This document shows positions 9,883 through 14,612 of a stretch of DNA of 14,766 bases, piece after piece. Position 1 is the first letter of the stretch; each line of letters opens with the position of its first letter. The stretch comes from a virus (taxonomy: Duplodnaviria > Heunggongvirae > Uroviricota > Caudoviricetes). The notes beneath the pieces are model-generated. The model was not told the origin of the DNA. It saw only the letters and a list, made by a program, of their open reading frames with translations, and did not search any database. A program made the position numbers and the translations under genes. The stretch lies in the IMG/VR virus record IMGVR_UViG_2602041905_000016; one strand, written 5' to 3'.

Positions 9883-12800
9883 TTACCACTGAATACCGGC
9901 ACCGAGCGCGGCGGAGTATTCACCCTGGCTATTGGTACTACCTTGTAATTTGTAGACCCAACGACCATTGGCGCTCACCATCGACACACCTAAAGCAACT
10001 GCCGATTCACCGTTGTAAGTACCACCACCAATAGAGGCCATGCTGGCTCCCGGCGTGTAAGCCTGCGGCAGACCGGTCATTGCCATTGCAGAAGCGATAC
10101 CACCACTCAGCTTGCTTTCAGTTTTGGACAGTTTGTTATCCATCTCAACCATGCGCTGATCGGTGTATTGCTTCGTTTCCTGCACACTTTGCTTCAACTG
10201 CGCATAGTTCACTGCGTCGTTGTTGTTCACGCCAGCAGAAACGTTGCTGATGCGAGTCGTACCGCTATTGCCGCCACCGAGAGTGATGTTGCTGTAGTCG
10301 ATAGAGCCATCAGCTTTGGTGTCGTAGCGCACGCCGCCTGCTTCAGAAGACTTCAGTTGTGAAACGTTAACCGCATCGGTGGCATTAACACCGGCAGCAA
10401 CGTTGGTGATACGGCGCTGGTTGGTAGAAGAACCCACAGAGATCGTATTTTCTTCGTCTGCTACGGAACCCGTGCCCAGCGCGACGCTGTTATCAGCGGC
10501 AGCAATGGAACCAGAACCAATCGCAACACTGTCTTTACCCTGCGCGTTGGCGTCTGCGCCATCGGTGTTGGTCTTGAAGTACTTAGTACTACCGGTGGTT
10601 ACGATATCGCCAATGCCATTTTCGATATTGGTCACGCGAGTATCCAGATTAGTGACCTGAGTGTTCAGGTTAGTAATGCTCTGGGTATTCTGGGAAACCT
10701 GCGCGTCCGTTACTTTCAACTGACCCACGTTAACCGCATCGGTATCCGCCGAACCTGCTGCGACGTTGGTGATCTGACGTTGACCGTCTTCGCTACCTAC
10801 GGAGAATTCACCCACAGAGTTCTGCGGTGCATCCATGTTGTAGGCAGTGTAGTTGGTCTGTGCACCACGGGTAGTCTGAGAACCATTACCCATTGCAATG
10901 CTGTCGGCATGATTTGCGCGTGCGTTAGAACCGATAGCAATACCGTTGATCGCATCAGCCAGAACTAAAGTGTTCAGGCCGATACCAATACCCGCATTAC
11001 CATTAACGATGGTTTTCGCGCCCATTGCCAGCGAGTCTTCACCGACTGCCAGTGAGTCTTCAGCCGTTGAGTTGGCGTGATAGTATTTGGTTGGTGTGGT
11101 TGCGACTGCACCAATGGCGTTCTGCAACTGGCGAACCGTAACAGCGTCATGGGCTTCAGAACCATCCGCGACGTTGATGATTTGACGATATTTACCATCA
11201 TCACCGATCGACAATGCACCAAGCAGTTCGCCATCCGTGGTGTCATAACCAATCACAACACCTTCTTCCGATACGCTGGTGTTACGAGAACCTTTAACTA
11301 TTACACGGCTGGAAACGGAGCTGCTACCCAGAGCGATACCCGTATCAACGCCGCTGTAGCTGCCCTGACCGATGGCCACGCTGCTATCGCCTTTGGCAAA
11401 AGAGTTATAACCCATGGCCACGCTGCTATCGCCTTTGGCAACAGTGTTATACCCCACAGCGGTAGAGCCAATACCTGCTGCGCTGGCATCGGTGAAGGTT
11501 AAACCGGTATCATTGGTACGCACATAGTTAATACCTGCACCATTTTCTTCGATGTAGGTTTCACTGGTGTTACCGGCAAGCTGGTTAATCATTTGGCTAT
11601 TTTGCGTAACCAGAATATTGGTTGCGTTTAACTGGGAACCGTTAACAGCATCGGTACTGGTTGTGGAGAGATCACCAGCCGCAACGTTGGTGATTTTGCT
11701 GGCATTGCCATCATGGCTGGCGTTGTAGGCACCTGCGTCTTCATCCCACAGCAGAGCGTTATTATCGAGCGCATCCAGGGCTTCACCGACGTTGTTGTAA
11801 TCGGTATTTGCAATGGTGTAAGTCGGTGCAGTGATAGTTCCGTCAGCGTTGACTTCTGCATCACCACCCAGCGCATCAGCGATGTACTTATTGGTGCTAT
11901 AGAGCTGTGAGCCATTAATGGCATCGCTGCTGGTGGCAGAGACTGCACCGTTAGCGACGTTAGTGATTACACTGGCAGTTTTATCTTTCCCGTGAGCGGC
12001 GCTAAATGCACCGTTACCGCCATTGGCTGTTGTATCCCACAGCAGAGCATCATCCAGCGTGGTATCGATCGCTTCCAGCGCGTCACCGACGTTGTTGTAA
12101 CTGCCGCCAGCGATGGCATAAGTCGGTGTAGTGATACTGCCGTCAGTGTTCACCACAGCATTCCCGCCCAGAGCATCGGCAATGTAGTCACTAACACCAT
12201 AAAGTTGTGAACCGTTAATGGCGTCGCTGCTGGTGGACGAGACTGCACCGTTTGCAACATCAGTGATTACACTGGGAGCATTATTAATGCCGTGTTTGGC
12301 GCTGAATTTGCCTGCGGTTGCATCCCAAAGTAGGGCGTCGCCGAGTGATGTGCTAAATGATGTGTTAATGGCTGCCAGAGCATCACCGACGTTAGTGTAG
12401 TCAGTACCACCAATAGTGTAGGTTGGCCCACTTAATACACCCGTATCGCTGATATCAGCACCACCACCAAGATATGACGTAAATGAATCCGCTACGCCAT
12501 AAAGTTGTGAGCCATTAATGGCATCAGTGCTGTTAGAAGATATCTTGCCAGCCAGTAAGTTGGTGATCTTGCTGGTAGCTTCGGTACCGTGCGCGGCGCT
12601 GAATGCGCCAGCCGCTTTGTTCCACAGCAGAGAATCGTCCTTAAGGTCGCCAACGGAATCCGTCAGGTTGGTGATGTTGGTGGTGTTAGTGGCGATGTTG
12701 GTGGTGTTGGTCGACACGTTATCGTTGGTGGTTTTGAGCTGGGAGCCGTTAACGGCGTCAGTGCTGCNNNNNNNNNNNNNNNNNNNNNNNNGTCAGTGCC

Positions 12801-14612
12801 GTGAGCGGCGCTGAATGCGCCAGCTGTTTTGTTCCATAGCAGGGAGTCGTCACCGAGACTGTCAACAGCGTCAGTCAGGTTGGTGATGTTGGTGGTGTTA
12901 GTGGCGATGTTGGTGGTGTTGGTCGTCACGTTGTCGTTGGTGGTTTTGAGCTGAGAGCCGTTAACGGCGTCAGTGCTGCTGGCAGTCAGGTTGCCAGCGG
13001 TGACGTTAGTGATTTTGCTGGTGGCTTCGGTGCCGTGCGCGGCACTGAATGCTGTGCCGTTCCACAACAGAGCATCCTGCTGCAGGTCATACAACTGAGA
13101 GCCGTTAACCGCATCTTTACTGGCTGCTGAAATCGTACCGTTCGCCACATCAGTGATTACGCTGGTCGTTGAGCTACCATGAACGGCGCTGTATTTGCCT
13201 TTGATTTGGTCCCATTGCAGGGTGTTTTCATCAAGTACAGTGAGCGCACTGCCAACGTTATTTTTGTTACCATTTTTTAAATTGTAGGTTGGTGCGTTAA
13301 CTGTACCGTCGTCAGGGTTTACCGATGAGCCTCCTCCAAGCCTTTTGGCTATTGAGTCGCTGATGGCATAAAGCTGTGAGCCATTAATGGCGTCGTGGCT
13401 GTCAGCCTTGATCGCGCCATTTTTTACATTAACGATCTTGCGTTGTAATGAGCTACTGCCGACAGAAACGGAATTGTCTTGATCCGCAATGGAATCTGCA
13501 CCTAGCGCGACAGAGTTAATACCATTGGCATTGGTATTACTACCAAGCGCAAGACTATTATCGCCAGTGACAACACTGGTCTTGCCCAGGGCAATCGAGT
13601 TTAAGCCGCTCGACAGGCTAGCATTACCCAGAGCGATAGCATCAGTGCCATTAGCCTTGTTGCCCTGACCAATAGCAATTGCGTTATCTGCCAGAGACTG
13701 GCTGCCATTACCCAACGCGATAGTATTGACTTTATCGGCAATGCTCCCGGAGCCCATCGCGATGCTATTCACCCCTTTTGCATGCGCGTTATTGCCAATA
13801 GCCGTCGCATTTTCAGCAGCTTCGCTCTCTGCACCCATAGCAATGGCGTTTGCTGCGCTGGCTACGGATAGTCTACCTAAGGCAAGGCTGTCTACGCCTG
13901 CCGCAGCACTGTTGCGGCCTACGGCAATCGCGTTAGCCGCAGATGCGGCGCTACTTACTCCCAGCGCCATAGAATATTCTTTCGAGGCATTGGCAGTGTC
14001 ACCAAGAGCAATGCTCATAATTTCAGTAGCTTTAGCTGCATTTCCTAGCGCAATAGCTTTCGCGCCCGCCGCATTACTGTTACTCCCCACCGCAGTGGCG
14101 TTCAAACCAGCTGCATTGGATCTGTCCCCTTGCGCGAGCGAAAACATACCACCCGAACTTGCATATCGTCCAAGCGCTATTGAATACTCACCGAGTGAGC
14201 TTGATGATGCACCCATAGCAATACTTCGTTGACCGGTTGAAACGGCATTAACACCGAAGGCCATTGAAGAATCACCAAGTGCACTGGTAAGTGCACCAAT
14301 AGCGGAACTCCAGACTCCCTGGGCGTTAGATTTATAACCGACCGCAGTACTGGCACCATTACTATCTGTATAGGCGGTTGCCTTTGCGCTTTCACCAATA
14401 GCAACCCAGCCTGTGCCTGTTCCAATACCCTGACCGTCGTCATTCCCGGCGTTTGCCCATACGCTAAAAGAAGACAGCAACCCACCCGCAACCAGTGCAG
14501 AAATTAACAGCTTACTGCGCCCGCTTTTTTTACCACGACTTTTTGCTGTTTCACTGGCAACGGTGTAACTGCCTGTCGCCGGATTCCAGATAACTTTAAA
14601 TATTTTGTTCAT
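9883..14612 (-). CDS. Trimeric autotransporter adhesin (type Vc), UpaG/EhaG/SadA-like; interrupted by an assembly gap at 12768–12791 with true length unknown
   Basis: N-terminus [29 protein letters not shown]… followed by a hydrophobic signal segment, i.e. an autotransporter extended signal peptide region. Then many YadA-like head repeats (…SIALG…SMALG…AIAVG…SLALG…) and a neck (…[16 protein letters not shown]…). The stalk carries repeated DALLW…AHG…ITNV…DA(V/I)NGSQL units and a YYHANS connector. The C-terminus (…[33 protein letters not shown]…[19 protein letters not shown]) is a YadA-type membrane anchor ending in W. The two track ORFs (12663..14612 and 9883..12717) are the same gene split at the N-run. 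The tail of the first ORF (…[19 protein letters not shown]…) is an out-of-frame artefact. Confidence 0.9.
12583..12977 (-). repeat. Tandem direct repeats of about 185 bp inside the adhesin stalk, flanking the N-run
   Basis: 12583–12767 and 12792–12977 align along their length with an identical core (CAGGTTGGTGATGTTGGTGGTGTTAGTGGCGATGTTGGTGGTGTTGGTCG). They encode …[17 protein letters not shown](S/T)[18 protein letters not shown]… More diverged copies lie at about 11875–11985, 12171–12285 and 13081–13190. Confidence 0.85.
12768..12791. other. Assembly gap (24 N) inside the adhesin repeat array
   Basis: Literal N-run. The upstream frame (codons ending at 12792) and the downstream frame (open from 12765 to the stop at 9883) differ by one nucleotide, so the N count is a placeholder rather than a measured length. 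Confidence 0.95.

Follow-up and report, generated by a model that had tools for sequence, protein, structure and literature searches.

The question raised by this locus is what a run of 24 N, set inside a repetitive adhesin gene, stands for, and whether it conceals further copies of the repeat. The window, that is, the whole stretch of DNA analysed (14,766 nucleotides, nt), is the entire scaffold JQFD01000759.1 (GCA_000742495.1) of Escherichia coli isolate 913, and the gene in question is a upaG-type gene on its minus strand, predicted to encode a trimeric autotransporter adhesin. Isolate 913 (JQFD00000000) is one of 12 sequenced O1:K1:NM isolates of sequence type 95 (ST95) from neonatal feeding tubes, which share an indistinguishable pulsotype; a Nextera XT library was read on the MiSeq (2x300), and SPAdes served as the assembler (PMC4620641). 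A sequence-only reading of the window had interpreted the N-run as the trace of a collapsed tandem array, in which additional repeat units may be missing from the gene. The comparisons presented here indicate that the gap very probably corresponds to 46 nt and that upaG of isolate 913 is the ordinary two-unit allele with a product of 1583 residues. The N-run is a technical gap in an already known gene of a well-studied lineage.

The content of the gap was determined in finished relatives. All 14,732 called bases of the window, which lie in three contigs (7875 + 4882 + 1975 nt), are 100% identical to the complete chromosome of ZJ3920, where 46 nt occupy the place of the 24 N and 150 nt the place of a second run, of 10 N. 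The same 46 nt are found at the gap in UTI89, and in complete ST95 genomes this segment encodes residues 608-623, which, in repeat unit 1, connect the DALL2 strand with the neck. In all 40 complete genomes among the matches listed, the 14,766-nt window corresponds to a span of 14,928 nt. The reconstituted two-unit region of 741 nt was recovered at 99% identity or more in 125 complete genomes, a set whose colinearity was judged on sampled matches down to about rank 106, each of them a single 741-nt piece. When the gap is filled with the 46 nt, an open reading frame (ORF) of 4752 nt results, the 1583-residue product of which is identical to the ZJ3920 coding sequence product and is present in exactly this form on at least 1000 public contigs. 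The ORF of 649 residues that spans the N-run, on the other hand, is on record on one contig only, JQFD01000759.1 itself. Moreover, the de novo drafts L011 and L012 cross the position of the gap with the same 46 nt. We infer from the finished relatives that these 46 nt would also be present in isolate 913. The Japanese drafts BGJM, BFGS and BFGU (L007, L008 and L010) were considered as independent evidence as well and were dropped, as they are apparently reference-guided. In these assemblies (GCA_005397525.1, GCA_005381945.1 and GCA_005381985.1) the length of the N-run equals the exact reference distance in 8 of 9 cases, which suggests that their N-runs represent a reference-guided consensus and not de novo gap estimates.

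The filled gap also accounts for the broken reading frame. On the minus strand, the N-terminal ORF runs from 14612 down to 12663, reads through the N-run and then meets a stop codon, while the C-terminal remainder of the adhesin gene lies one frame over, from 12717 down to 9883. The failure of the frame to carry across the N-run had been noted earlier and is evident from these ORFs. It is explained by the difference between the length of the gap in the finished relatives and its written length (46-24=22, and 22 mod 3 = 1), as the 46 nt restore the frame. The earlier view that the length of the gap was not literal and the frame break technical was correct.

Two N-runs occur in the window, 24 N at 12768-12791 and 10 N at 7876-7885. 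On either side of the former lies a direct repeat of 187 nt (12581-12767 and 12793-12979). The two copies are 88% identical to one another, which is far above chance, and they are repeats of a protein-coding module. These positions agree with the near-identical repeats that the sequence-only reading had located at 12583-12977; its unit length of about 185 bp was close to the mark, and its identical core of about 45 bp proved too short, the longest identical core of both copies being 52 nt (12662-12713 = 12874-12925). The location of the gap inside a tandem repeat of the adhesin stalk, which was also part of that reading, is correct. The apparent spacing of the repeats in the window is 212 nt because the length of the N-run is artefactual; the finished relatives give a true period of 234 nt (78 residues). 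As the N-run interrupts the array, Tandem Repeats Finder did not report it, and it was picked up by a direct-repeat finder. The features concerned are the following.

9883..14612, minus strand: upaG-type trimeric autotransporter adhesin gene, interrupted by the N-run; 4752 nt and 1583 residues when gap-filled
12768..12791: scaffold gap of 24 N; in finished relatives 46 nt, that is, residues 608-623 plus parts of the adjoining codons
12793..12979, minus strand: repeat unit 1 in gene order, sequenced part; coiled coil, then the start of DALL2, with its own unit-specific residues
12581..12767, minus strand: repeat unit 2 in gene order, matching part, with its own unit-specific residues
12874..12925: 52-nt exact core, copy of unit 1 (gene nt 1688-1739)
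12662..12713: 52-nt exact core, copy of unit 2 (gene nt 1922-1973)
12743..12767: 25-nt exact repeat, long-neck motif STDAVNGSQ; twin at 12955-12979; its end is a contig end
7876..7885: second scaffold gap, with 10 N in place of 150 nt of single-copy DNA that covers the lldR start and the lldP end, by comparison with ZJ3920

The collapse of a tandem array, as proposed earlier, is not supported here. Each flank of the gap is 100% identical to its own unit and merely 85-88% identical to the other unit; therefore, two distinct, unmerged units are present, both of which have kept their unit-specific bases. Read in order, the two-unit model runs ...GCCGCTCACGGCACTGAC, which abuts the 46 nt, and then GCAGCACTGACGCC; it likewise runs ...CACGGCACTGAC, then GCCACCAGCAAGATCACCAATGTCAAAGCCGGTGACCTGACAGCTG, then GCAGCACTGACGCC. 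No part of the unit is less repetitive than the missing 46 nt, which match the copy in the next unit at 35 of 46 positions and differ at the remaining 11. The 125 complete genomes of this allele show the same two units with 46 nt at the gap. The contig ends, moreover, lie off the borders of the longest exact repeat, since both 52-nt cores are situated inside contigs and just one end coincides with the 25-nt repeat, and they also lie away from the positions at which a three-unit loop would fork. The 150 nt that the second gap of the scaffold replaces are single-copy in 5420 of 5426 genomes. Because 10 N stand for 150 nt, the N lengths in JQFD01000759.1 are estimates and not literal distances, and because this gap lies in single-copy DNA, the assembly of isolate 913 breaks outside repeats too. 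The draft is a very fragmented assembly, with at least 759 records, going by the record number.

The most plausible course of events is the following. Two contigs would have been joined by read pairs, and the intervening stretch would have been written as an estimated number of N. The missing piece would be the 46-nt segment that, in repeat unit 1 of upaG, separates DALL2 from the long neck, and the gene would possess an intact 4752-nt ORF for a 1583-residue adhesin with two 78-residue stalk modules, each composed of coiled coil, DALL2 and long neck. The frame break would be a pure effect of 24 N written for 46 nt. The break itself may have arisen from local coverage or k-mer dropout, perhaps helped by the 25-nt repeat at the contig end.

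Several observations weigh against this explanation. The draft contig JSIS01000103.1 is 100% identical to all three contigs of the window, yet it carries 280 nt (46+234) between the flanks of the gap. Therefore, identical flanks are no proof of two units, and the 100% identity of the flanks to finished genomes, which was considered as a decisive argument, is weakened by this contig. Furthermore, the same repeat region interrupts at least 20 public draft contigs, which carry the same C-terminal fragment of 944 residues; the N-runs of these broken drafts, 99-205 nt in length, lie in or beside the 52-nt core. Three of these drafts, as noted above, are apparently reference-guided. The repeat region is therefore fragile for short reads. 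Finally, the 25-nt exact block (12743-12767 = 12955-12979) terminates precisely at the left edge of the gap, which is one contig end, and this hints at some role of the repeat in the break.

The products of unequal crossing-over were built for each exact block of the ST95 allele and then looked up in public data. The three-unit product of a crossover in the 52-nt core, with 1661 residues, is on record as WP_033555276.1 on one contig, the above-mentioned JSIS01000103.1, and a second three-unit product, derived from the 25/20-nt blocks, is on record on one ENA contig. One-unit products of 1505 residues are on record on 122 and 8 contigs, and the exact one-unit form is present in three complete genomes, PMV-1, N56 and 2022E04-002. 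Three units are also present, on a related but diverged allele, in the complete genomes of CU42ET-1 and GPEC1186, and across E. coli 1, 2, 3 or about 5 copies of the module occur at the same locus (about 5 in the CFT073 type, one in L1PEag1). For the allele of the window, the distribution of complete genomes and of public contigs with the exact protein is as follows.

1 unit: 3 complete genomes; about 130 public contigs
2 units: 125 complete genomes; at least 1000 public contigs
3 units: 0 complete genomes; 2 public contigs

Judged from these sequences, the copy number of the module is truly polymorphic in E. coli, even on this backbone, and the 52-nt core is likely a site of unequal crossing-over, as recombinants predicted from it are on record. 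Four predicted crossover products of the ST95 upaG allele are on record in total, two with one unit and two with three units. Unless they are assembly artefacts, these products point to no fewer than four separate recombination events on a single allele background.

It has to be considered, therefore, whether the gap in isolate 913 hides one or more 234-nt units, which would give an interval of at least 280 nt and a UpaG of at least 1661 residues. Such a content is very unlikely, even though the exact three-unit crossover products described above, one of them with flanks identical to those of the window, and the three-unit complete genomes on the related allele provide precedents for it. A 234-nt insertion would leave the frame unchanged, and the N estimates in JQFD01000759.1 can err by 140 nt or more; three units would also make a break in this region likelier, which somewhat raises the chances of this alternative. 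However, none of the approximately 128 complete genomes of this allele (125 two-unit, 3 one-unit) has three units, and the three-unit proteins are known from 2 contigs versus at least 1000 for the two-unit protein. A three-unit array would, moreover, constitute an exact repeat of 286 nt, and at k=127 the assembly would be expected to fork near gene nt 1814 and 1847, positions calculated by hand from the coordinates and not by simulation, whereas the observed contig ends, at gene nt 1821 and 1868, match no single k. The 52-nt core is also crossed unbroken by both contigs. A crossover within the 25-mer was tried as a model of the gap edges and rejected, as by hand calculation it does not fit the observed ends at 1821 and 1868. 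The combined proposal, that the module changes its copy number by unequal crossing-over within ST95 and that the gap of the outbreak isolate 913 hides a three-unit event of 1661 residues, is highly improbable as a whole: its population half is already supported by the four recombinants, and its isolate-specific half is unlikely. The suggestion of additional units made by the sequence-only reading has some support in E. coli at large, where the copy number varies; for this scaffold the two-unit form is favoured.

The cause of the break is a separate matter, as the same content of 46 nt and two units may also have been interrupted by repeat ambiguity in the assembly graph and not by low coverage. 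This alternative is a possible, though not the preferred, one. It agrees with the coincidence of the contig end and the end of the 25-nt exact repeat, with a 17-nt exact repeat contained in the missing 46 nt of the finished relatives, and with the broken drafts, at least 20 of which are interrupted within about 300 nt of the gap, several of them exactly at the 52-nt core. However, with the longest exact repeat being 52 nt, no shared k-mers are expected for 300-nt reads and a large SPAdes k; the other contig contains the twin of the 25-mer and did not break there, and JQFD01000759.1 also breaks in single-copy DNA. We lean towards coverage dropout over repeat ambiguity, and local coverage or k-mer dropout, rather than a collapsed array, would be the probable reason for the break in the two-unit gene.

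The N-run may finally be taken at face value, as a strain-specific interval of about 24 nt or of another length, which would leave upaG frameshifted or altered, and thus a pseudogene, in isolate 913. This is scarcely credible. The scaffold read literally does contain a frameshift, and in this lineage the adjacent DUF3251 gene has become a pseudogene, but the other N-run of the scaffold is demonstrably non-literal (10 N for 150 nt), the complete genomes among the matches listed contain no such deletion, and a deletion of 22 nt would, by coincidence, have to end precisely at two contig ends.

The reconstructed two-unit protein shows the organization expected of this adhesin family. Pfam assigns to it an N-terminal extended signal peptide region (ESPR; PF13018 at residues 1-48, E = 1.8e-15), 15 YadA_head and 12 YadA_stalk stretches, and a C-terminal YadA anchor (PF03895 at residues 1523-1583, 68.6 bits against a cut-off of 22.7) that resembles the anchor structures of Hia and YadA. 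Head repeats and coiled-coil stalk/neck connectors make up the passenger, as seen from Pfam and from the match of DALL2 and long neck to SadA fragments, and the protein as a whole matches crystal fragments of SadA, BpaC, AtaA, Hia and YadA. On these sequence features, the gene product qualifies as a trimeric autotransporter adhesin (type Vc secretion) and is predicted to assemble as an obligate homotrimer on the cell surface. In UTI89, ZJ3920 and CFT073 the gene is bordered by lldP on one side and by the DUF3251/yibL/yibT/mtlR genes on the other, and the NCBI annotation of CFT073 places upaG at the same lldP-yibL locus. The gap-filled protein and CFT073 UpaG share 87% identity across 1538 aligned residues, and by locus and identity the window gene qualifies as a UpaG orthologue. 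The repeat unit of 78 residues consists of three parts, an Asn/Thr-rich coiled coil, a DALL2 connector and a long neck, and it aligns to the SadA fragments 2YNZ, 2YO2 and 3ZMF (E = 1e-16 to 2e-14). The motifs D(A/S)LLW and STDAVNGSQ correspond to the beta-layers of DALL2 and the long neck, respectively (PMC4786415, Table 2). Other repeats occur in the same gene. Three more modules of about 100 residues, each with a GGG...PTY segment, DALL and neck, are found at window positions 11618-12575, downstream of the two 78-residue units, with a period of 300 nt and 61-76% identity, and a 42-nt tandem repeat (2.1 copies, 91% identical) is located at 11368-11456, within the second YadA-head region.

Among known systems, the closest comparison is with UpaG of uropathogenic E. 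coli CFT073, together with EhaG of enterohaemorrhagic E. coli and SadA of Salmonella, all of them trimeric autotransporter adhesins of enterobacteria. The gene occupies the same lldP-yibL/mtlR locus as upaG of CFT073. CFT073 UpaG shares with the window protein the ESPR, the YadA-like head repeats, the stalk/neck modules and the YadA anchor, and the SadA crystal fragments 2YO0 and 2YO3 match the C-terminal 400 residues of the window protein. The two UpaG proteins differ in length (1778 residues in CFT073 versus 1583 in the ST95 allele) and in the number of 78-residue modules (about 5 versus two). The DALL2 and long-neck modules of SadA (2YO2, 2YNZ, 3ZMF) have D(A/S)LLW and STDAVNGSQ in common with the window unit; unlike in SadA, the module of the window occurs as a tandem duplicate that includes a coiled-coil spacer rich in Asn and Thr. 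A structure for this stalk segment of E. coli was not found. Bartonella BadA, as described in PMC9602544, likewise has a passenger of repeated neck/stalk modules. In repetitive stalks of the BadA kind the number of modules varies by strain and short-read assemblies break there, and the same applies to upaG with its at least 20 broken drafts. The upaG array differs, however, in being short, with 2 units that are 12-15% diverged, and most assemblies resolve it, with at least 1000 contigs carrying the intact protein. Nothing specific was found in the literature on the long-read resolution of repeats in trimeric autotransporter adhesins.

The main value of the present finding is one of housekeeping. 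The annotation of JQFD01000759.1 splits a probably intact adhesin gene into parts of 649 and 944 residues, and the 10-N run yields a false fused lldR-lldP ORF of 770 residues (7182-9494, minus strand). Virulence genes or pseudogenes counted from such drafts would be miscalled. Beyond this, the one- and three-unit crossover products on record indicate that the length of the stalk varies within one allele background, in agreement with what is generally known of repetitive trimeric autotransporter adhesins.

Two further observations concern the surroundings of upaG. Just upstream of it lies a gene for a DUF3251 lipoprotein of the SadB/YajI type (window 14656-14766; 5879-6562 in L001 and 6025-6708 in L016). 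SadB is the lipoprotein partner of SadA in Salmonella. In the ST95 genomes UTI89, ZJ3920 and PMV-1 the DUF3251 gene contains an internal stop and carries a pseudogene annotation, and it is intact in CFT073, CU42ET-1, GPEC1186 and others; by analogy with SadA and SadB, its loss might affect the display of UpaG in ST95. In addition, a 39-nt sequence occurs twice in the window with one mismatch, at 5429-5467 in the cysE/trmL intergenic region and at 9764-9802 between upaG and lldP, and looks like an element of the repetitive extragenic palindromic (REP) type.

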